Below are positions 5,150-61,113 of a stretch of DNA of 64,000 nucleotides, in pieces. The position numbers and the translations under genes are program-made. How positions within the stretch are numbered: position 1 is the first letter of the stretch; each line of letters starts with the position of its first letter. Location: the NCBI GenBank assembly GCA_963514005.1, contig OY740811.1, forward strand, positions 33,108,001 through 33,172,000. Reading direction: 5' to 3'. Below the pieces are notes generated by a model. It had not been told where the DNA came from. It searched no databases and was given only the letters and a program-made list of their open reading frames with translations. The DNA is from Raja brachyura (lineage: Eukaryota).

Positions 5150-5209
5150 CTGAAACAGAAAAATAAAAGCATTTAGAAACAACAAACTTTGATGCTGTCT
5201 TACGCAAAA

Positions 5210-5823
5210 GGACACAAAGTGCTGGAGTAACTCAGCGGGTCAGGCAGCATCTCTGGAGAACATGGATAGGTGACGTTTCACAGAGTGCTGGAGTAACTCA
5301 GCGGGTCAGGCAGCATCTGTGAAGGGAAGGAATGGGTGACGTTTCGGCTCGAGACCCTTTGGGTCTCGGCCCGAAACGTCACCCATTCCTTCTCTCCTTA
5401 AATAAGTGAATTTTCAAATGGTGCCAATTACTAAGGGTGCGAATTATCTGATATTATGGTATTCTGGAGAGAAGGAATGGGTGACGTTTCACAGAGTGCT
5501 GGAGTAACTCAGCGGGTCAGGCAGCATCTGTGGAGAACATGGATAGGTGATGTTTCACACAGTGCTGGAATAACTCAGCGAGTCAGGCAGCAACTGTGGA
5601 GAATATGGATAGGTGACGTTTCACAGTATGCTGGTGTAACTCAGCAGCTTAAGCAGCATCTGTGGAGAACATGGATAGGTGATGTTTCGGTTTCGGACAC
5701 TTCTTCAGAAGGGGTTCGGGTCAGGACCATTCTTTAGCATATTTTCTGATGAAAGGCCCTGATCCGAAATTCCACTTATCCATGTTTGCTGGACCTGCTG
5801 AGTTACTCCAGCACTTTGTGTCC
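5210..5823. repeat. cluster of Penelope-derived elements including 66-bp tandem units and a fold-back
   Basis: GCTGG(A/T)(G/A)TAACTCAGC recurs at 5221, 5287 and at 5498, 5564, 5630 (66-bp period); inverted copies at ~5361-5396 and ~5746-5823. Confidence 0.85.
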
Positions 5824-6010
5824 TTTAATATAAAAGCATGTTTGGAGAGACCCAGTAATCTAAAGCAGGAGTAGAGGGATAAAAACATTATTGTTGGCAC
5901 TGGACAAAATCTGTTAACAGCTGTGCTTTTGCAATGATGGAAGAGGATTCTATTCATCAACACCTGAACATATCTCAATGAAGTCAGTAACACAGTTTAT
6001 GCAGCCTTAC

Positions 6011-13633: not shown

Positions 13634-13879
13634 CTGTTGGTACAAATGCAAATTGTAGTAACATTACTACATCAGCCATGATCACAGTGAATGGCGGTGC
13701 TGGCTTAAAGGGTCGAATGGCCTACTCCTGCACCTGTTGTCTATTACATTACATGCATAGTTTATATTACATTACAGAATGACTACACAATTTCTCACAG
13801 CACATCCAACGCAGCACAAATACAGTTACAATAGTGATAAGATTGTAGGAGGAATGCCATGCCATCTTGTTTCACACAC

Positions 13880-29537: not shown

Positions 29538-31266
29538 TAGGTATGTTACAAACCTTACCTTCATCAGATCTGCAGTTCTGTCACTGGTCGTGAGCGCGAC
29601 TTTGTCGCCTTTGAGGGTGGGGGGGGGAACGGGACGGGATTAAAATGCCGTATTTTCCTGCCTGTCCGAGATATATTTTCTTGGGCTACTACTTGATGCT
29701 GAAAAGTCGTTCCGACTGCCGTTCTTGGTAGTTTTTTTTAAAAACCTGCAGGACAATGCAATCACTGGAGTAAAATAAAAATCTACTTCTAACGTTGTCA
29801 ATGCCGACAACGGGACGGATCTCACGTCGGGGACAAACCATAAGGTAAGCCGTGTATTTTACATATAAACTTGCTTCTTAGGATTACTTTAATCAAAATT
29901 TAATTGGCGAAAATGTGATTAAAGCCCCATACGAACCGGCAGTGTTTTTCCTGCCGATATGGGGTTCAAATTCACCGCAACGTTCCAATCGATCGTGTTC
30001 CACAAAATCTCACTCGAAGGATGATTTAAATGGCCATTAATTTACGGGAATTAAACACTAAATTCCTTCCATTTGGCTTAAAATTCATGACAATGAGATT
30101 TAAAAATCATGTTATATTGTGAATTCTTGTGTGAATGTTATTTGGACAATTAGGCTATTTAAAAATGTTAACCTTTTCTTAAGAAATGGATAGATGTTTA
30201 GATCTAGTAATTGAATTTCGTAATTAGCTACAATTAGGCAACTAACTAATTATATGCTTTAATTTCAGGTCATCCAAGTAAGATTGTTTCATATTTGTTT
30301 CCGAATGCTTGAAGGTGGAATCTCATATAGATAGGGTGGTAAAGAAAGCTTTTGGTATGCTAGCCTTTATAAATCAGAGCATTGAGTATAGAAGCTGGGA
30401 TGTAATGTTAAAATTGTACAAGGCATTGGTGAGACCAAATCTGGAGTATGGTGTACAATTTTGGTTGCCCAATTATAGGAAGGATGTGAACAAAATAGAG
30501 AGGGTACAGAGGAGATTTACTAGAATGTTGCCTGGGTTTCAACAGCTAAGTTACAGAGATAGGTTGAATAAGTTAGGTCTTTATTCTCTGGAGCGCAGAA
30601 GGTTAAGGGGGGACTTGATAGAGGTCTTTAAAATGATGAGAGGGATAGACAGAGTTGATGTGGACAAGCTTTTCCCTATGAGAATAGGGAAGATTCAAAC
30701 AAGAGGACATGACTTTAGAATTAAGGGACAGAGGTTTAGGGGTAACATGAGGGGGAACTTCTTTACTCAGAGAGTGGTAGCGGTGTGGAATGAGCTTCCA
30801 GTGGAAGTGGTGGCGGCAGGTTCGTTGGTATCATTTAAAAATAAATTGGATAGGCATATGGATGAGAAGGGTATGGAGGGTTATGGTATGAGTGCAGGCA
30901 GGTGGGACTAAGGGAAAAAAGTTGTTCGGCATGGACTTGAAGGGCCGAGATGACCTGTTTCCGTGCTGTAATTGTTATATGGTTATATGGTTATATGCTT
31001 GAATCTATAATAACTGAAAATTTCATTCAGTTCTCTTAATTTTTAAGAAAGTTATGGACTGTCCTCGATCACAGCTTTTAAGTTAAGTCAATGGAAAAGC
31101 AATAGGGAACAAGATGCTAATTTCAGTATGAAAGTGGCCATAACTTTTTTAATACTGAAGATATGAGAGTGAATTAGGTGTCAAATTAAATTTTTTTTTG
31201 TGTTTTATCTGATGGGATAAATTGCAGACTTGATTTTTAAAATCTCAAAATTTTCTAACATTGCTG
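29538..31266. mobile_element. non-autonomous DNA transposon (hAT-like), ~1.04 kb excluding nested CR1
   Basis: imperfect 15-bp TIR TAGGTATGTTACAAA / CAGCAATGTTAGAAA (11/15); GCATAGG duplicated at 29531-29537 and 31267-31273. Confidence 0.65.
30309..30996 (+). mobile_element. 5'-truncated CR1-clade LINE: intact ORF2 C-terminus (30309-30911), 3' UTR, (GGTTATAT)n tail
   Basis: 200-aa ORF with LYKALVRPNLEYGVQFW, ERRRLRGDLIEVFK, TRGH, FFTQRVVAVWNELP; ATGCTTGAA at 30305-30313 and 30995-31003. Confidence 0.93.
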
Positions 31267-32085: not shown

Positions 32086-33077
32086 CTGCAATAAAAAGAA
32101 AGAAAATGCTGATGTATAATTAGAACTAACAATCTCTGCATTTCACATGAGTTAAAGGTAATTTAAGGATTGTACATGCCTCTATATCACCTACATTGTA
32201 TATACAATTAGTACAAGCAACTGTTTTAATTCAAGAAAGGTAACCCCGTGGGAAAATGCGCAAAGCTGCAAAAACTTGTTACACCACTCCGCATTCACAG
32301 AATTGTAATCATTATTCAGCCACCATAATATGATGGTTCTTGACTGATTTCAAATGGAAAGGATTAATATCAAACAGCTAAGTCCAAATTGGAATTTTCC
32401 CCACTTTTACATCTTATAGACTTGCAATTTATAACGTGAATTTGTAAGCTGCCAAATAAAAAGGGGAAAACTTTTGGATTTTGACTTCAATTAACCATGG
32501 AGAGATTCGTAAATGACTCAATTAGGAGTTAATTCAAGTAATTTATAGAGAAGAATATTTTCTTTAATGAGGCAGTCATGATCTGATGAACTGACTAAGC
32601 TATCTTTTAACTGGAGTTTAAAAATAGTCAAGAATGATACAATGAAATCCTGACCTCACTTGCCCTGAATTAATTGAGTCTAGACAATTTGAATCCAACT
32701 TGCATTTCTAAATGTTGACATTAAAAAATAACCCATATACTTCGATATTAACTGGGAAACTCGTCAGGAAAGAATTAAAGAATGAGTAAGATGAGTGAGC
32801 CATTAAAGTACCATTGAACCATTGATAAAATAGCAGTTATCATATTCAGTAAAGTGCTTAATAGGTAGACATTGTGACAAATAGAGAAATTTAGAAGTGG
32901 AGATGATACATATTGAATAATAGTGAGATCGAGTACAGAATATAGAATCTTGAGAGGAATAGATCGGGTAGGCACACAGTCTTTTGCCAGAGTAGGGGAA
33001 TCGAGAACCAGAGAACATAGGTTTAAGGTGAAGGGGGGGAAGAATTACTAGGAATCTGACTTGATTGTGTTCATGTA

Positions 33078-33208
33078 TAGTTTAAGAAAGAACTGCAGAT
33101 GCTGGAAAAATCAAAGGTAGACAAAAATGGTAGAAAGCCAGCAGGTGAGGCAGTATCTATGGAGCGAAGGAATAGGTGACGTTTCAGGTCGAGACCCTTC
33201 TTCAGACT
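33078..33208. mobile_element. Penelope-derived short element (single arm)
   Basis: AAGAAAGAACTGCAGATGCTGG...GACCCTTCTTCAGACT family consensus. Confidence 0.8.
33178..33205 (-). ncRNA. minimal type I hammerhead ribozyme motif (best-preserved copy)
   Basis: CUGAAGA-A-GGGUC(UC)GACCU-GAAA-CG-UC: both core boxes, stem II, palindromic ACGU stem III, UC cleavage site; stem I weak. Confidence 0.55.
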
Positions 33209-33417
33209 GAGGTATACAGATGTGCTCATGTAAAGAATGCTTTGACTGGATAGCATGCAAACAATGTTTTCATTGTATCTCAGTGCATGTGACAATATTA
33301 AAGCAATACCATTTATAATTTGTCCAATACCATATTGGGAGCAGCTTGAGGGGCATGCAGACCACTGACAAAAAGGATAATCAATAAAGGGGTTGTGTTG
33401 CTCTGCCTATTATTTAC

Positions 33418-33634
33418 CAAGGACAGGATCTATTTGGTGTCCACTTGTTTCTTTTTTCCCAGATCCTGTTGTTGAGATGCCTGTCAAACAAAATGAGTTG
33501 GTATTGCCATTCATTGACCCAGGATCAGGCATGGCAGGCACTGCAGTAGTCTGCTTCGGTATAGACTTCACTATTGCCAGAAATAGCTGCACATCGTTGT
33601 ATGAAAGTCTGATGTCAAGACTGGAGAATTGAAT
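33418..33634 (-). CDS. VPS13D: VPS13D exon (~ex34) IQFSSLDIRLSYNDVQLF...IDPVL
   Basis: within ORF 33410..33643; tttcAG|ATT, G|GTAAAT; 217 nt. Confidence 0.95.
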
Positions 33635-33888: not shown

Positions 33889-34238
33889 TTTAGAGATGCA
33901 GCACAGAAACAGGTCTGAAGAAGGGTCTTGATCCAAAACGTCACCCATTCCTTCTCCCCAGAGATGCTGCCTTCCCGCTTTTTGTGTCTATCTTCGACAG
34001 AAACAGGCCTATTGGCCCACCGAGTCTGCGCCAACCAGCTATCACATTAGGAACAATTTCAAGAAGCCAATTAACCTATAAACCTGTACGTCTTTGGAGC
34101 GTGGATGCACCTGGAGAAAACTCACGCGGTCACAGGGAGAACGTACAAACTCCATACAGACAGCATCCATAGTCAGGATCAAACCCGGGTCCCTGACACT
34201 GTAGGCAGCAACTCTACTGCTGCGCCACTGTGCCGCCC
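33889..34238 (-). mobile_element. HE1-type tRNA-derived V-SINE with a Penelope-derived element nested in its tail (33914-33996)
   Basis: reverse complement of SINE at 60015; nested element flanked by ACAGAAACAGG at 33903-33913 and 33997-34007. Confidence 0.8.
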
Positions 34239-38223: not shown

Positions 38224-38665
38224 AGGCTGTCACACTGCGGCGACCTAATTGGCGAGTTTGGGGGAGTTAGAAAAAAATGTCACGTTGAAGACCTCCTTCA
38301 ACTATGTAGAAGACTAGCTTCGGCTAGCTTCGGGAAAATTGGACACCGAATAGTGGAGAGTGAAGACGACCTCCTTCGATCTCCTTCAACCTCCCTTCGA
38401 TTATGTTAAAGACTATCTACGACTACCTTCGACTACCCTCGATTACCTACGACTAACATGCCGACCTACTACGACTAAACCTACGAGTAAAAAAAGTATC
38501 TATTTTTTCCATGGCGACTCTTTTTAACTTGCGGGCATTTGGCAACGTGTCGAGCATGAAGGAGAGTTACAAAGACCTCCTAGGACCTCGTGTCGACCAT
38601 GCTGCGAGTATGAGTCGAGGGCAAACTCGTCTGAATTCGCGGATTAGATTGCCGCAGTGGGACTT
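38224..38665. mobile_element. PIF/Harbinger-type MITE with eroded termini
   Basis: GTCACACTGCGGCGACCTAAT ... ATTAGATTGCCGCAGTGGGAC; internal CTACGAC/CTTCGA repeats. Confidence 0.7.
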
Positions 38666-43738: not shown

Positions 43739-44811
43739 CTGGCATGAAAGAACCAAAGGTTTGAGGAAGCAACAACAACGCTACAGATGAAAGGCCAAAA
43801 CTCAGCATCACTGTATGTTTAAAATATGTAATCTATCCAAATATACATTTGAAAGGTTATAATGTAAATTAATTGCTGACTTAACCATTTAGCCTCATTG
43901 CAGCTTTTTTGCAGGGATTTGTTCCCATTATCTGTCATGTTGGTTGCATCTACTACATCCTAATGTCTCTAGATACAGCTTTTGGGGTTAACAGAATCAA
44001 GGGATAAGAGGAAAAAGCAGGAACGGGACACTGATTTTGGATGATTGAATGGTGGTGTGGCTCGAAGGGCCGAATGGCCTCCTCCTGCACCTATTTTCTA
44101 TGCTTTTCACATAATTAGAGCTGAGTGAATCACTTCCCGAGCAAAATCCTGATTAGAGATAACCAAATTACTGGTATACTTATTAACTCAAAAAGATAAT
44201 TCTTTGGGCCAGGGAGATCAATTAACCCAGGAAGATAAAAGACATTTCAAATGCTCACAAAATCATTCTGCACTTTTTCCATGTCTGGTTACAAGGTACC
44301 AAGCAGTGCATTTGGATGAACTATTTTGATATCCAACCTTTTAAAGCTGGAAATAAAAAATGGATAGAGAGGATTACAGGTTTACATATTTTAAAATTCA
44401 GTTGTGTTTATTAAACAAAAAACACTCATCAAAAATACAGATCACTCCCAATTTAAATAATGCAAACTTACTATTTTCTATATTTGGTAATCTCTTTCTT
44501 CATAAAGCCAAAGAAAAAGCACTGTGCAACCTTTGGGAATGAACAGTGAATTCTTTATCTTCAGGTGATCTAATTTCACATTGTTCCCCCACCAATCACA
44601 CTTATATCAATTTCTCACCGTTTCTTTTAAATGCCTCATTAATGGTCAGTTCTTATGTTCGTGACCTGTCATAACTTATCTGGAGAAAGGTCTCGACCTG
44701 AAACATCACTTATCCATGCCTTCCAGAAATGCTGCCTGACTTACTAAGTTACTCCAGCACTTTGTGCCTATAATTTGGAAACCAGCATCTGCCGTTCCTC
44801 ATTTAGTTATT

Positions 44812-47159: not shown

Positions 47160-48334
47160 ATACATGGCTGGTCAAAGGGAAAATTTGCATCTGCATCTAA
47201 GAAGAGGAGACAGAGATATGGAGGTGAAGCAATTTAGGGGGCAAATTCCAGAGTTCTGGCTATGTCCAGGCCACCACCAATTCAACAAGTAAAATTGAGA
47301 GTACAGAAGACCAGAAAGAGAAGAATGCAGCTGTACCACAAATTATCAGTGAACAGAAGGTGATATGTGTGTTGCAGAATTTTTGATAACTTCAAGTTTA
47401 GAGGGTAGAATGCTGGAAATTACCCGGGATGAGTATTTTAGCAGAAGGTATACTGAGGTAGAATTATATTAAACTGACTAAACAGGACAACGAACAGCTT
47501 GCACATAATTTCCATCGGTGGTACTGACATAATACGGAAAAGAAACATGATCAACACAACTGATTCAGGTGCAATCAGGGACAGTGTTTTTTTAATTTCT
47601 ATCTCATACCCGAGTTAAAATGCATTTGCTGTTGTCACCAAATGGTTTAACAAGAATTGTATGCCAGTTTATACGGTCATTGCAGCCTAATCTGTGATAA
47701 CTCAATCAATTATCCTGGTTTCACAGAAGCTGAATGGGGAATCACTGCAGTGGCACGGGTTATTGATTGGGGACGATCAGCCATGATCACAATGAATGGC
47801 AGTACTGGCTCGAAAGGCCGAATGGCCTCCTCCTGCACCTATTTTCTATCTATCTATCTATGATTCACGAGGGTCATTCAACTCAATATTAAAAACTACA
47901 GAGAACACAAGGCAATTTTCATGCAGGTGCCTGAAACACGAGCACAGTCAGTTCAAACTGGTGCAGGACACCTCTTAAATACATCACATGCAGGAAATAG
48001 GGTCAAATCAAACTCTCACACACCCTTTGCAGATGATTTTCTGTGTTCATATACAAATCAATGATGCATGCCTATATCTATTCCCTTCAACAGCTGGAGG
48101 CAAACTCATTCACAAAATGTCATGGACATTCATTCTTTTTTTTATAGAACGGACACCAGAGCTCTTTCTCACATAGATTTCTCCCCAAATATTAAAATAA
48201 TTTTTGCAACCCATTCATTCTCTGCAGAGGAGGCTGGGGGTTTCATTTACCAACATGTTTCACCCTCAAAATTGAGATTTAAACATCTTTCATCAGTCCA
48301 TTTCATTTTCATCATTGAGAGCATGAGCAAGGAC

Positions 48335-48652: not shown

Positions 48653-50953
48653 GAAGTACCCATATCATTTTGATCAACGCACTAATGTTGAATGTCAAAT
48701 CCTAAATCCAAGTGCATTGTTAAGGCATGAAAACCAGAATCAATAGGTTCCCACCTCATATGTTTCACACTCAGCTGCAATATATAAAATACTTGAATAA
48801 TTCCAAACCATTTAAGTTGGCATTTGCATCATTACTAAATAGCTGGATATCCTCTGCAGTGTACAGATCAGAACAATCTACGGATTATAATCATCTACTA
48901 TAGGTGCAATTACTTGGGAGACAGTGCAAAGTGCATGAACACACGAGGAAATATCACACTACACATTGCCTGTGCAAAAGCATTCAAAGAGGTGATCTTG
49001 TCAGTGTACCTCAAATAATGATGGGTCCTTGTATGAATTGGCGTGCAAAATCAAATTCTCAGAAAAAGAAAAAAGGCAAATAAATAAACTTAAACCAACA
49101 TTACGTCACATGTTATGAAAATAAATCAACCAACCACTTTAAGTGTTTACAGTGAACGCAAAAGAAAAAATAAATAAACAGCATGCTTGCTTTCTTCAGA
49201 GGAACACTGCAAAATGTTGCATTTAATTATACATAGTCTAGGAATTTTTTGTATGCCTTTGAACCTGGGATTTACAAATGATTTATTTTGCACTACATTA
49301 AATTAAAAATTAATGGACTAGCACACATGTTATGCTAACATAATCACTTCCATATATAAGTGAAATTTGAAGAGAACATTTTCTACCATGGGTGAGGATG
49401 TTAATGGTGGATAATCCAGTCTTTTGAACTCCTGTCAAAGAGGAAATAGTGATTCCCCAGACAGCCTCAATCCTGGGTCATGTTCAGGATACAAGCTATT
49501 ATCGTGACAACATGGCCTCCACTCCAGGTCATTCACAGCCCATCAGTCATTACCCGAAGCAAAGCTTAACTGCCAGCAAACTTGCAATTAGCTTGACAAC
49601 GCAGGCCCGATTCAATGCAGAATCACCAATCACTGTCGGTCTCAAGTCAGCTTGTGGAACACTGTTATTATTCTTACAAGACAGGTAAAATTCAAGATTA
49701 GATTTATACAGCTCATCTGTTATGCTGACAATTTTAAACCAGGAAAATGCAGCAGACACTCATTATCCTCATCAAACAGCATTCACCGAGTTCAAGTAGG
49801 AACACGATCATTTTGCCTACACTGCCTCACTTAGTTGAGAAACAAATCCAAATAGTTGCCTTCTATTTAATATAGTAAGTAAAGGATTCAAAGGTAATGA
49901 TATAATACGTGTGGTGCTGGCTCGAAGGGCTGAGTGGCCTACTCCTGCACACATTTTCTGTTTTCCACCAATTTTCCTAATGCAGCAAAAGTCCAATTGA
50001 ACAAGCTATCCCATCCACAGAGTTATTCTACAATGATGAGCTGGGCAGTAAGTAGTTATACTATGCAGTATACCACAACAAAACCAGTTGCCGACCTCAC
50101 TGACTGATGTCAATTTGCACAGGAGGTGTAGGAAACCTTTGCTTTTCATTTCTTGTCTGGTCTGTGATGTCAATACTAACTGCAGGAACCATCATAAACT
50201 GGAGTTTCTAACTCACAATCTCAATTGCGCAACTCAACTTTTAGAAATCAACCTATCAGACAGACTCCTCATGTGGCTTCAGTCATCTGATAACATTCAA
50301 TGCAGAATTACAAATCACTGTTAACTTTCATGTCACAGTAATTATCCTTTAAAACATTTGGAATTCCAGTTAAAAAGTATACAACTCAATGATTAAGCTT
50401 CATCTGCCTTTGCAAATAAAAGAAAAACAATTCCTATCCATAAATTGAGCAACTTTAAGCTTGTCATACACAAACGATCAAGACTCAATTTTACCTCTAA
50501 CAACTCTTCAGACATGTCTCACGAAACTATCAATGGCTTTGTTGACAAGACTTTTCCACAACTTTGTGCTCTATGTTCCTCTTTCTCAACCATCATATTT
50601 AATGACATTTTCCTAGATTTCCAAGATATGGCTCAATTAAAGACTTTAATAAATATTTCAGTGCATGGAATAATGTTGAAGGTTTATCAGAGAGAGGAGC
50701 TAGGCAAGTTCAATCTATAATGATTGTGGAACTGTTCAGGAGTCTCGCAAAATGTGTTCAAACACTTGGCTCCATTTTTATTTTCCTAATAAGATGAGTG
50801 ATTATAGTCTCTAAATAAACATAACCAGAAATATGAAACATAAAATTAAATGAGAAAAAATTGGTTAAAAAAAAAATCAGAGAAAATAAAAAATGATTGG
50901 AATTTTTCTCCAGCTAAGCGAGAACAACATGAATTTTGGAATTTATTTTTTAC

Positions 50954-52273: not shown

Positions 52274-52609
52274 GATGCAAGTTCTCTCAACACAAGTCAC
52301 CAATGCAGCACTCTGCAGTTTCAAGTGCTGATGAGTAGAATACAGGGATGACACCAGTGCTAACCGGTTATTATAATCTGTTTAATCAACACGTTAGCAT
52401 TTTAAACAGCTGAGCAGGAAATCAAACAGACAAGCAATAGTAATTGCCAGAAAATCCAATAATTTAAAATCATCACAGCTTTTCAGTTTAACATCACTTT
52501 TAGTGTTACTTTTAATTAACAGTAAAGTCTGCTAAGAAACAATGATGTTGGGCTCATTTTTTAAGTATATGGCCAAACAAATTGCTGAATGTACTAGTAC
52601 AAATGACAG

Positions 52610-52802
52610 GGTTACACAAAAAGCTGGAGAAACTCAGCGGGTGCAGCAGCATCTAAGGAGTGAAGGAGATAGGCGACGTTTCGGGTCTCGACCCGAAACG
52701 TCGCCTATCTCCTTCACTCCTTAGATGCTGCTGCACCCGCTGAGTTTCTCCAGCTTTTTGTGTAACCCTCGATTCTCCAGCATCTGCAGTTCCTTCTTTA
52801 AC
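52610..52802. mobile_element. young Penelope-derived fold-back element: perfect 80-bp-arm palindrome, 14-bp TSD
   Basis: palindrome 52608-52769 with a 2-nt loop; AGTACAAATGACAG at 52596-52609 and 52803-52816. Confidence 0.9.
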
Positions 52803-53099
52803 AGTACAAATGACAGCTTGGGGGCTTACACGCAGGCATTTGTGTGCTAATTTATGGAGACTATTCAACAGCATTCAAAGGGCCTGCAAGCAGCTTATAC
52901 AATTCATCAAGTAAGAGGATCTTGATTAGCTTTTGTTTCAAAGACACTGCTATGCCATCTTGCTTCTGAGTATGAATACTATGGAAAAAACACAAGGACG
53001 CCCATTCTGCTGCACAATTCGGCAAACCAATGGTATTTTTTAAAATGGTGACAGATTGGGAAATGTTGATGCTCAATAAGACCTGGGTGACCTTACACA

Positions 53100-55832: not shown

Positions 55833-57374
55833 CTATAAAGTATAAAAGGAAGGTGACAGTGAGCAAAGCAGGCACAGGGACCTGCTGGTTGACAGATGGA
55901 ACAGTTCAATGACTCGACAAAAGTTGAACAACTGCACAACTTTACGAACAAAATGGGAGCATGATGACAATCCATTTTTTTAATCTTTTAGTGTTAAAAT
56001 CAATGTTAGAGGGGATCTTAAACACCATCCTTGCCCAATATAAACTGATAGGTTCAGCCCAGGTATTATAGATTTTCTGAACATTCTGGAACAGTATGTA
56101 TCACGGTTGACTCCGTTGTCATTACAGGAAATAATTATTAATAATATCTCACTTATTTTGTTATTGATGCTCTATTACCTCATAAGGGAGTCCTCAAGGA
56201 AGAGAGAATGCATTGTCAACACTTAATACTATTACAGTAAAATAGAAAATGGGAATCTAATGGAAAAGAGAGATTGGATGGGTACCCTACCACTCTGTGG
56301 GTGCGGTACAGTATTAGGATTGAGGACTGATTTTATTATGTAGTGCCTAGGTCAATGCAAGATGCAATGCAAGAAAATAAGAACAACCTTCAGAACAATA
56401 GACAATAGGTGCAGGAGTGGGCCATTTGGCCCTTCGAGCCAGCACCGCCATTCAATGTGACAGTGGCTGATCATCCCAAATCAGTACCCCAAACAAAAGG
56501 AGCAGGTCAGTCGGCTCCACAACCCGGTCGATATGAAAACTTGTAAGTAATATGTTAGACACAGAACCTGTCTACTGGAGCAAACCCACTAGGACTCCAT
56601 TGTAGTTGTTCACATAATGGTTGGCTCGGCTCAGCTTTGATAGAAGTTGTAGATTTTTCAACGCAGTTTGAACAGCTTGGTTGGCACCCTAATAGGTCAA
56701 TATTTTGCTGCCTATCAGCTGGGGACAGAGCTTTAACAGTTCGACACATACTCAAAGTATTTGGGTTTGCATTGTGAACATTGGTGAGACTGTGATTCTT
56801 GGCAAAGGTCATTCTGTTAGCAAAGTAATCACAGATTCCTATACTTGGGGAGGATTAGGATCGGCTATGGTTGTATTAAAATCAACTTTAAAGTTTGTAC
56901 CCGAGCTAACTACTGATCAAAAATCTGGAGAGATTAGCTGATGCATCATTTTGAGAAATGCAATAATGTTCAACAGTACACACATTGCAAAGATTAATTT
57001 GTAAATCTCAATGTTGGAAAAGTGGATACATTTGTCCAGGTTTTTTCATTGAACTATCCTTTTAAGACAAGCTCCTGGATTTTAGGTGTTTATGCACAAT
57101 CTGAAGAAAATTAATTGCTGATGTCATCTTAAAATACACGAATAAAGCCGGCATGCTGCCATGATTAACAATTTTATCTGTTTTCATAACCTGAATGTCA
57201 GAGCAACTAATTACAGCCAAACCATTTGTGAGGATTGTCAGCATGAATAAAGTGCCAGGTCTTTTTTATTATTTTAGTGCAATACTCTTGATCGAAGTTC
57301 TAACAGAGGTTGGATGACACCTACTGGTGGAACTTTACTTTTCAAAATGCGGAGACACAGCACAAAAGTTATAT

Positions 57375-57558
57375 GGAACAGCAGATGCTGGTTTAAACCG
57401 AATATAGACACAAAATGCTGTAGTAGCTCTGCGGGACAGGCAGCATCTCTGGAGGAAAGAAGCGGGTGATGTTTCGGGTCAAGACCCTTCTTCAGAGGGT
57501 CATCCTTCATCTGAAGAAGGGTCTCGACCCAAAACGTCACCCATTCCTTCTCTCCAGA
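57375..57558. mobile_element. Penelope-derived fold-back element with two opposed hammerhead motifs
   Basis: minus 57468-57495 CTGAAGAAGGGTCTTGACCCGAAACATC; plus 57511-57538 CTGAAGAAGGGTCTCGACCCAAAACGTC. Confidence 0.8.
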
Positions 57559-58899
57559 AAGGTTATATGGTGTCCCTTAAAGGCACATATAAAACAATTG
57601 GATATGCTGATACAAAAGGATATTTGTTATTAGAATGGAGAAAATATAAAAAATGGTTAACAAATGTTGTAATGGATGTGGGTCAGGATGATCACATTGC
57701 AGGCATATTTATCCTTCAGGCAGTGGTTGAAGACAGGTGTTACTTGAACTATCTGGAATTGGTGCGGAGAGATACTGCAATTTGTCTTGTTTGAGTGGAG
57801 TCCAAACACCACTCATTGTGATCAGGACATGAAACAAGGATGTCTCTGCCACCAGGAGAGGAGTAATGGCGAGTGCTAGACAACATGGTGTAACGGTATG
57901 AATGTAACTTTCTTTTTAAAAGAGTTCAGTAAAACTACAACAGTGTAGAAATCATGACATATGCATCTCATGTACTAATATCATAAACTCTGTATCTAAT
58001 TATAAATCCCCAAATCTGTTATTATTTCCTTTGTTGTGCTATATACCTGTCATTCATTACACGTAACGATTTATGATTGATCACCCTTGTATCATCTTGT
58101 TATTCCATACATTTCAGCCTCTTTCCATCACGCTTATAATATTCTTTATTTTATTTGCTAAATTGCATTACTATATGCAATACATTACCTATCACTTAAA
58201 ACTCTTTATAACCTTGAGAAATCTTTCATAATTATTTCTGATTGGTTACCCCAATTTTGGGCAATTTCAATACCTCTCGCTCTATTTTGGTTTAAATTAT
58301 CAATCGACCCGCATCCATTGGTTTCTGCCAGAAAGCCACATTTTTACTGCTATTTTTTTCCTAAGTCTTTAACAGTGGAAGAAGCAACCATTTGGTCCAT
58401 CAAGCCAGTACTGTTGTTAATTTAATTTAATCCAATGTTTATGCATCTGAAAGTCAATAAAATACAAGTGCTGCCAAATTGCCTTATAAAAGTTTTCCTG
58501 GAACACAAACTACAATAGTCTTTCAGATAATGTGTTCCAGATCTCAACTAGTTTTTGTGTGGAAATAGATTCTTCCCCCTTTTTTGCAAATGATTTTGAA
58601 ACCATGACGTCTAGTCTCTGAACCATTTGTTAAGAGTTTAATTTTCAGCTCTGCTGAAATCTTTCTCCTAACAATATTTTTGGAATGCCTTCTTTTAATC
58701 TATGTATTTTCAGACTGTTACATTGGCTTTATAAATACTGGAATTGTATTAATTTTTTTTTTTTTTTTAAAGACAATTTATTTAATAGTGCCTTACATAT
58801 CTCCAAATGCTCAAAAGCCTGTCTACAACTGACATTGGACTATCTAGTTCATCCTTTTTTCCCCTTCTTGAATATTGATTTGGAAAAGACATTAAGCAC

Positions 58900-59485: not shown

Positions 59486-59672
59486 GTGCAGGAAGGAACT
59501 GCAGATGCTAGTTTAAATCAAAGGTAGACACAAAATGCTGGTGTAACTCAGCGACACGGGCAGCATCTCTGGACAGAATGAATGGGTGACGTTTTGGGTC
59601 AAGACCTTTCTTCAGTCTGAAGAACTGACCCGAAACATCAACCATTCCTTTTCTCCAGAGATGCTGCTTGTT
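59486..59672. mobile_element. Penelope-derived fold-back element ~30 nt upstream of an exon acceptor
   Basis: family consensus; arms meet at TTCTTCAG-T-CTGAAGAA. Confidence 0.75.
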
Positions 59673-60014
59673 CCAACAAACTCAGATCGATGGACAACTA
59701 CAGGCTGTCCATATTTTTAAAACTTTATGAATTCTAAATACATATTTTAACAATTTGTTGAGATAAGCAGAGGGTGATTAATTGGTACAGGAATTATCAA
59801 TTAAGGTAACTGTATTAGCAAGAGTTTTTTTCAAGCCTGCAAACCTACCAAAATCATGCAAGCTCGAGAAGTTAATTTAAAAAAATGCACAATTAAGACT
59901 AAAGTTCTTATGATCTAAATTAATAAGACATGAGGAACATCAGGCTGGACACTAGTGATACAATTAATCAATCAGTAAAAGATACAGTAAAAGATCTAAA
60001 CAAATTTCATAGAT

Positions 60015-60327: not shown

Positions 60328-60636
60328 TAAATTGTAGAATTGTTAATTCTCAAGGCTTAATGGGCACACTACCTTATAAGTGAACAGGGCAAACATTACA
60401 TTGTCAATTCACTGAGAACAAGCACGAATAAATAAAATTCCAGGCATTCTTAGTTCTTCCATACTATGCTGTATCTCTAACCCTTGATAATATTTAAAAC
60501 ATTTTCACAAGTTTATGCAAACCACAGGGATGATTAGTTTTAACATGGCAAGATCTACCACTACACTCATGAAAATAGTCAGGGAATTGGTCTGTTGTAA
60601 CAACTTGTCCCAAATACAGATGGATCTCATATCATC

Positions 60637-60872
60637 GAAGATAGACGCAAAAAGCTGGAGTAACTCAACAGGACAGGCAGCATCTCTGGAGAGATGGAAT
60701 GGGTGATGCTTCACGTTGAGACCCTTCTTCAGAAGAAGGATCTGAAGAAGGGTCTGGACGCAAAATGTCACCCATTCCTTCTCTCCAGAGATGCTGCCTG
60801 TCCCGCTGAGTTACTCCAGCATTTTGCGTCTATCTTCGATTTAAACCAGCGTCTGCAGTTCCTTCCTGCACA
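60637..60872. mobile_element. Penelope-derived fold-back element with perfect 14-bp TSD
   Basis: GATCTCATATCATC at 60623-60636 and 60873-60886; ~95-bp inverted arms. Confidence 0.88.
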
Positions 60873-60896
60873 GATCTCATATCATCAGCTGGGTAA

Positions 60897-61113
60897 AGGG
60901 CCTGTCCCACTTTCACGATCTAATTCACGACCTTTTTTACTAGTGGACATTTTTCATCATGCTAGAACAAAAGCCCTGACATACTTGATGTCACGAGTAC
61001 CTACGACAAGCATCATGGCCTGCTACGACCTCGTGACGGCCACGCTGCGAGTATGAGACAAGGGCAAACTCGGCAGAGGTTGTGAATTAGGTCGTGAAAG
61101 TGGGACAGGCCCT
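60897..61113. mobile_element. PIF/Harbinger-type MITE with TAA TSD
   Basis: TAA-AGGGCCTGTCCCACTTTCACGA ... TCGTGAAAGTGGGACAGGCCCT-TAA. Confidence 0.88.

Follow-up and report, generated by a model that had tools for sequence, protein, structure and literature searches.

The window analysed here, a 64,000-nt stretch of DNA, carries exons of VPS13D on its minus strand, and the initial annotation of this gene as the minus-strand host was confirmed by exons mapped across the stretch. One VPS13D intron (positions 32086–33417, minus strand, GT...AG, 1.3 kb), lying downstream of the exon 33418–33634 (minus strand), hosts a stub of about 130 nt (~33080–33210, minus strand). This stub represents the 3′ segment of a pseudo-LTR (pLTR) and comprises an initiator-like start, a hammerhead, a linker, and a tail. 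The hammerhead copy begins 212 nt into the intron. Read along the minus strand from 33205 to 33178, it presents CUGAAGA, a bulged A, stem II, GAAA, CG, and UC, which is the layout of a minimal type I hammerhead (33178–33205, with C3 at 33205, G12 at 33185, and C17 at 33178). The predicted cut falls between 33178 and 33177. The core boxes are intact and the palindromic ACGU is present.

A strict descriptor matched twice in the window, 24 times in the surrounding 264 kb, and 28 times in 560 kb of genome samples taken at even spacing; reversed-sequence controls yielded no match. The motif at 33178 is far beyond chance, and the proposal of a minimal type I hammerhead stands on both the sequence reading and these controls. 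Neither of the two descriptor matches in the window keeps both the palindrome and the G10.1–C11.1 pair, and an Rfam scan of the window with E values up to 10 found no hammerhead families.

Several details were revised. The motif was initially said to end the repeat; in the ribozyme sense it opens the ~130-nt repeat. Stem II, described as 5 bp long, has 4 bp and a 4-nt loop, since a loop of only 2 nt would be left if a fifth pair formed. The 33178 copy was also labeled the best one, yet it is damaged: C11.1 is replaced by T, giving a G10.1·U11.1 pair. The suspicion of a weak stem I was justified, as only 2 bp form within its outer limits (33176–33207, minus strand; 33207–33206 with 33177–33176), with a predicted pairing probability of at most 0.006, and the same 2 bp occur in intact young elements.

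The claim of a highly amplified family with about 20 or more copies was also upheld, with 40 nhmmer matches in the window (each arm of an inverted pair being one match). An antisense stub in the preceding intron (33912–34010, plus strand) has lost G12. An inverted head-to-head pair at 57373–57568 joins a minus-strand arm (57496–57373), which keeps the core and has lost the palindrome, to a plus-strand arm (57509–57568) that has lost G12. In two further inverted pairs, the minus-strand arm lacks G12 (59486–59674) or both cores are damaged (60632–60875). Among the other copies first listed, only that at 57495 (minus) retains its core, without the palindrome, while those at 57511 (plus), 33915 (plus), 60742 (plus), and 59592 (minus) lack G12. 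A near-perfect palindrome of a young subfamily (52586–52804) folds back inside stem II, so that the CUGAAGA half of the core is absent, and a stub cluster with 66-nt partial tandem units (5191–5836) is devoid of the 5′ half of the hammerhead. The 66-nt units themselves (5191–5709) run from the GAAA box through the short tail, and a similar pair is found in neighboring DNA.

The opposite-strand stubs at 33084–33206 (minus) and 33912–34010 (plus) flank the VPS13D exon 33418–33634. Speculatively, these inverted stubs could pair and favor skipping or circularization of that exon. The window also holds other repeats and a reading frame. A 209-aa frame at 30282–30911 (plus strand) has no Pfam matches and resembles the C terminus of a LINE protein of the CR1/L2 type. 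Dispersed repeats of a second family (319–484, 13650–13745, 44058–44101, 47755–47849, and 49918–49961) probably represent LINE or SINE 3′ ends, and a two-copy 88-nt repeat (38576–38663 and 61019–61106, 77% identical) is unrelated to the Penelope family.

The parent Penelope-like element

The repeat had initially been linked to Penelope-like elements and, at the same time, described as a separate non-coding retroelement family. The link was substantiated and the separate status refuted, as the repeat is the truncated end of an element coding for a reverse transcriptase (RT) and a GIY-YIG endonuclease (EN). Many genomic copies are preceded by the end of a GIY-YIG reading frame, one of them with Penelope-type RT motifs. 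At 24 of 30 loci anchored on endonuclease DNA (one being the query itself), the core lies within 400 nt downstream, and it survives in part at two of the remaining six. Of the 150 matches listed by a protein search, some lie inside very long open frames; all 12 long-ORF loci selected from this list carry an intact motif after the ORF. At four of the 12, the motif stands on both sides of the ORF, in a unit of ~4 kb. The pLTRs flank the ORF as tandem or partial-tandem copies, the arrangement characteristic of EN+ Penelope-like elements.

The intact layout consists of the motif, ~160 nt, the ORF, a pyrimidine-rich 3′ UTR, the motif again, and the tail, with the first ATG 163 nt after C3. The single ORF, 1,204 aa from stop to stop, encodes RT, a Cys linker, and GIY-YIG at its C terminus, in this order, as in other Penelope-like elements that combine RT and GIY-YIG in one frame. 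These motifs were read directly; the Pfam matches of the ORF to RVT_1 and GIY-YIG are weak and below curated cut-offs, and 1,794 relatives bear RT or GIY-YIG Pfam marks. Three intact ORFs are 98.4–98.9% identical, indicating a young family. The translation contains the CX2-5CxxC linker between RT and EN and the CCHH motif in EN, in line with the definition given in PMC8557442. By its linker and EN motifs, the element would be of the Neptune/Nematis type. Compared with the Neptune/Nematis-type EN+ elements described by Craig et al. 2021 (PMC8557442), its ORF is longer and has a Pro-rich stretch. In the ORFs of L091, L093, and L094, this stretch is long and precedes the RT region. The length of 1,204 aa exceeds that of most listed relatives (about 660–1,100 aa).

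All bases of C3–A9, G12–A14, U16.1, and H17, together with the bulge and the palindromic 15.2–16.2, are present both in intact elements and in the 33178 copy. The intact masters have the G10.1–C11.1 pair where the 33178 copy has G·U. This pair is highly conserved in minimal hammerheads (min-HHRs), according to Cervera and De la Pena 2014 (PMC4209133). Helix I, in the masters as in the 33178 copy, has 2 bp, short of the 4–5 bp expected of a min-HHR. The ~130-nt stub aligns over its length to an intact young pLTR, with decay. No target-site duplication (TSD) was found for the 33178 copy, and no ORF remnant was found in the window, so the connection of this copy to the element rests on sequence similarity. 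Taken together, the repeat is very probably the pLTR end of an autonomous Penelope-like element, and the 33178 copy a decayed, 5′-truncated insertion that is likely to be catalytically silent in its VPS13D intron.

The same stubs could be read as a non-autonomous family resembling retrozymes or SINEs, transcribed, self-cleaving, and mobilized by the Penelope enzyme in trans. Short stubs do vastly outnumber ORF-bearing copies, many have TSDs of their own, and animal retrozymes have been described as pLTR-derived (bioRxiv 10.64898/2026.07.22.740005). However, retrozymes consist of units arrayed head to tail, each with its own complete hammerhead, whereas the copies here are solo or inverted: head-to-tail arrays with complete hammerheads were absent from the window and from 824 kb of sampled DNA, where we found solos, inverted pairs, and partial tandems instead, and the 66-nt tandem of the window lacks half the core. 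Moreover, the 5′ ends of the stubs avoid the cleavage site, and in both subfamilies whose upstream DNA was read in detail, this DNA continues into that of the ORF. We consider a retrozyme- or SINE-like origin of the family improbable; some short stubs could have been copied from short non-autonomous masters.

Core conservation and cleavage in VPS13D introns

We counted conservation in 151 copies spanning the core. Identity to the family majority was 0.90 in the non-CpG core, 0.92 in the invariant tail, and 0.80 in the linker. Subfamily variants occur in the linker and none in the core. Since the core is free of subfamily variants and yet decays like the tail, the masters conserve the motif while inserted copies decay. 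The conservation test proposed at the outset had a divided outcome, with no core variant among subfamilies and, in the dispersed copies, a core (0.90) that fares no better than the tail (0.92). G12, which sits in a CpG, is kept in 96 of the 151 copies, against 117 of 151 for a comparable tail CpG (p=0.011), a comparison biased by the fact that the copies were found by their tail.

In the 2.7-Gb genome, 73,070 copies combine the core with U–A at the top of stem II (10.4/11.4) and 10,518 with U·G at this position, the latter constituting a subfamily, so that ~84,000 copies have the core and a paired stem II. At the same pair, the only one in stem II tested for covariation, C·A occurs in 1,845 copies genome-wide and C–G in 165, against 266 expected under independence. 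This pair shows one pair-preserving subfamily change, U·G, and no compensatory excess. A tail-only profile detected 170 arms in the 560 kb of genome samples, which extrapolates to ~820,000 genome-wide, and we estimate that the genome harbors several hundred thousand stubs.

With so many copies, sense-strand hammerheads might be active ribozymes that nick host introns, including those of VPS13D, often enough to matter. In addition to the ~84,000 copies with core and paired stem II, five copies that pass the descriptor are in sense orientation to VPS13D within the mapped span, and the somewhat greater loss of G12 than of the tail CpG (p=0.011) could be caused by selection against activity, subject to the same bias toward copies found by their tail. 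Sense copies are, however, not depleted: within the mapped VPS13D span, beyond which the 3′ part of the gene extends, we counted 27 sense and 19 antisense arms (p=0.30), and 12 and 6, respectively, among non-inverted arms. The predicted structures are also unfavorable. Stem I has only 2 bp, stem II has a predicted pairing probability of at most 0.07, and the active dimer of the 33178 copy is predicted to be ~13 kcal/mol less stable than the best co-fold; a potential partner, a sense copy bearing the palindrome, is found no closer than 48.6 kb away. For the intact master, too, the predicted energy of the active dimer is well above that of the best co-fold, and folding revealed no significant structure for the motif (z of +0.01 to +1.4 for the window copy).

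Published systems point the same way: monomers fail to cleave, and dimers are poor at it or require protein. In the assays reported in PMC4209133, cleavage was absent for single min-HHRs and weak for dimers. For the hammerhead of the anole element PAc, PMC11167929 reports that it depended on the element's protein, that insertion did not require it, and that no read ends fell at its site. We therefore regard intron nicking at a consequential rate as highly improbable. The suggestion that VPS13D introns are nicked finds no support, given the lack of sense depletion, the neutral-looking decay of the core, the absence of a close dimer partner, and the unfavorable predicted fold. The doubt initially voiced about activity agrees with the 2-bp stem I and this fold. 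On these predictions, cutting of VPS13D RNA by the 33178 copy appears unlikely. In the 140-nt pLTR end at L102:2206–2345, pairing is predicted between the purine-rich 5′ strand of the hammerhead and the terminal part of the long tail; such pairing would mask the core (z −1.25, not significant).

Stub ends and a possible strong-stop origin

The stubs often have TSDs and often occur in inverted pairs; an inverted partner was present for 130 of 313 tail-anchored arms (the aligned fraction of 318 found by tail). All of the Penelope-like traits of 5′ truncation, inverted 5′ copies, optional tail, and variable TSD were seen, and inverted copies, truncation, and an optional tail are published hallmarks of these elements. 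The 3′ ends cluster at two positions, ~+90 and +125 to +130 from C3; among 18 ends defined by TSDs, 15 fall at +89 to +100 and three at +121 to +130. Three young TSD-flanked stubs (L201, L221, and L230) reside inside older copies of the same element, near the ORF start, and an insertion preference for its own pLTR–ORF junction is possible.

At the 5′ side, homology ends at −5 to −1 from C3 in 78 of 313 arms and at the cleavage site in nine of 313. Hammerhead cleavage was thus rejected as the source of the stub 5′ ends. The upstream DNA is pyrimidine-rich in only three of the 100 copies in the −6 to +2 bin, so most of these ends are real truncations or inversions.

A fixed boundary just upstream of the core might also mark a splice acceptor, the ORF being spliced out or back-spliced and the spliced RNA retroposed. 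The core is preceded by a tract of 74% pyrimidines and an AG; at +163, the first ATG of the ORF overlaps with a donor-like site; and one locus shows an exact donor–acceptor join. Yet exact splice positions account for only one of the 31 joins of that region with the motif, the rest being scattered; several joins are nested insertions with TSDs; and the donor–acceptor joint is missing among the joints listed from public runs, which are contigs of doubtful RNA status. On the strength of the position control (1/31), we rejected a splice-defined 5′ end and ORF-skipping retrocopies, to which we assign a negligible probability. Contig depth in four public runs, which may be DNA, peaks over the motif and tail and is orders of magnitude lower over the 5′ part of the ORF.

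The 5′ boundary site fits the initiator consensus, YYANWYY, with A at −3. Copying of a capped end is marked by a non-templated G. From the first 100 listed copies with a non-C base at −4, we obtained 63 solos, of which 18 were TSD-flanked. In this small set, confined to copies with non-C at −4, G at −4 lay outside the TSD in seven of seven cases, compared with three of 11 when this base was A or T (p=0.004), and where a single extra letter was present it was G in four of four. Genome-wide, C occupies −4 in 41,069 copies and non-C bases in 10,209, many of the C copies being read-through or inverted. In an unbiased sample, G at −4 was not enriched (11 of 68 solos) and many solo stubs extend to −4 or −5, so the 5′ boundary spans more than a single base. 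In Drosophila Penelope, an internal initiator promoter in the pLTR has been described (PMC2377424).

These junctions suggest, with about an even chance in our judgment, that the stubs arose by integration of strong-stop cDNAs copied from a capped Penelope RNA, the start of which is the initiator three bases before the core. An RNA start at −3 would explain why stem I has only 2 bp. In such a cycle, the element's RT would start internally at two sites, as shown for anole PAc, and would copy back as far as the capped RNA 5′ end, which would lie three bases upstream of the core. Ribozyme function would be limited to the element's own tandem RNA, where the hammerhead would act as a dimer, probably together with the protein that the element encodes; the dispersed copies would be by-products that decay neutrally.

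Known relatives and significance

Motifs of this kind are already known, as minimal hammerheads in Penelope pLTRs have been published since 2014. As with the PLE min-HHRs described in PMC4209133, the family has the core boxes, the bulge between A9 and 10.1, the G10.1–C11.1 pair, and a palindromic 15.2–16.2 without helix III; its motif occupies both flanks of an RT and GIY-YIG ORF, and most copies are dispersed singly or form opposite-strand pairs. Unlike those described there, it has a helix II of 4 bp and a helix I of only 2 bp, though the same study presents a D. virilis min-HHR with a 2-bp helix I, and sequence variety within the family is low. The ~84,000 copies counted here are about ten times the 4,000 of coelacanth or 9,000 of Xenopus reported in PMC4209133, which were obtained with a different descriptor.

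The closest parallel for the ends is the Anolis Poseidon element PAc (Frangieh et al. 2024, PMC11167929), whose tail is defined by two internal start sites of reverse transcription. Both families have two 3′ ends ~35–40 nt apart downstream of the hammerhead, and in both the cut site goes unseen as an end of genomic copies. They differ in that the PAc ORF is reported to begin inside the hammerhead, whereas here the first ATG lies 163 nt after C3. PAc also belongs to the Poseidon clade and has had protein-assisted cleavage demonstrated, while the present element is known from its sequence. Animal non-LTR retrozymes, as described by Li et al. 2026 (bioRxiv 10.64898/2026.07.22.740005), likewise have a type I hammerhead, a relation to pLTRs, and many monomers; unlike them, our family forms no head-to-tail arrays of complete hammerheads in the DNA examined and is tied to ORF-bearing copies. 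Within an incomplete coverage of the literature, we found no study dedicated to this family in cartilaginous fish (such genomes may be listed in supplements to PMC4209133 and bioRxiv 10.64898/2026.07.22.740005), and none on a cap-derived G at Penelope junctions.

Genome-wide nicking of introns would be striking, and nothing in the present analysis supports it. A young family whose intact ORFs are 98–99% identical, and whose intact motifs number in the tens of thousands, does offer material for testing whether such hammerheads cut at all and which protein this takes. If the strong-stop reading is true, the ribozyme would occupy the very 5′ end of the mRNA; its cutting would detach the cap together with the first 31 nt, acting as a switch gated by protein, and the starts, stops, jumps, and fold-backs of Penelope reverse transcription would be recorded in hundreds of thousands of junctions. 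The Penelope transposition cycle is poorly understood, and the junction record, with its two 3′ ends, its initiator-like 5′ cluster with an extra G, and its inverted arms, makes this cycle testable from genome sequence.
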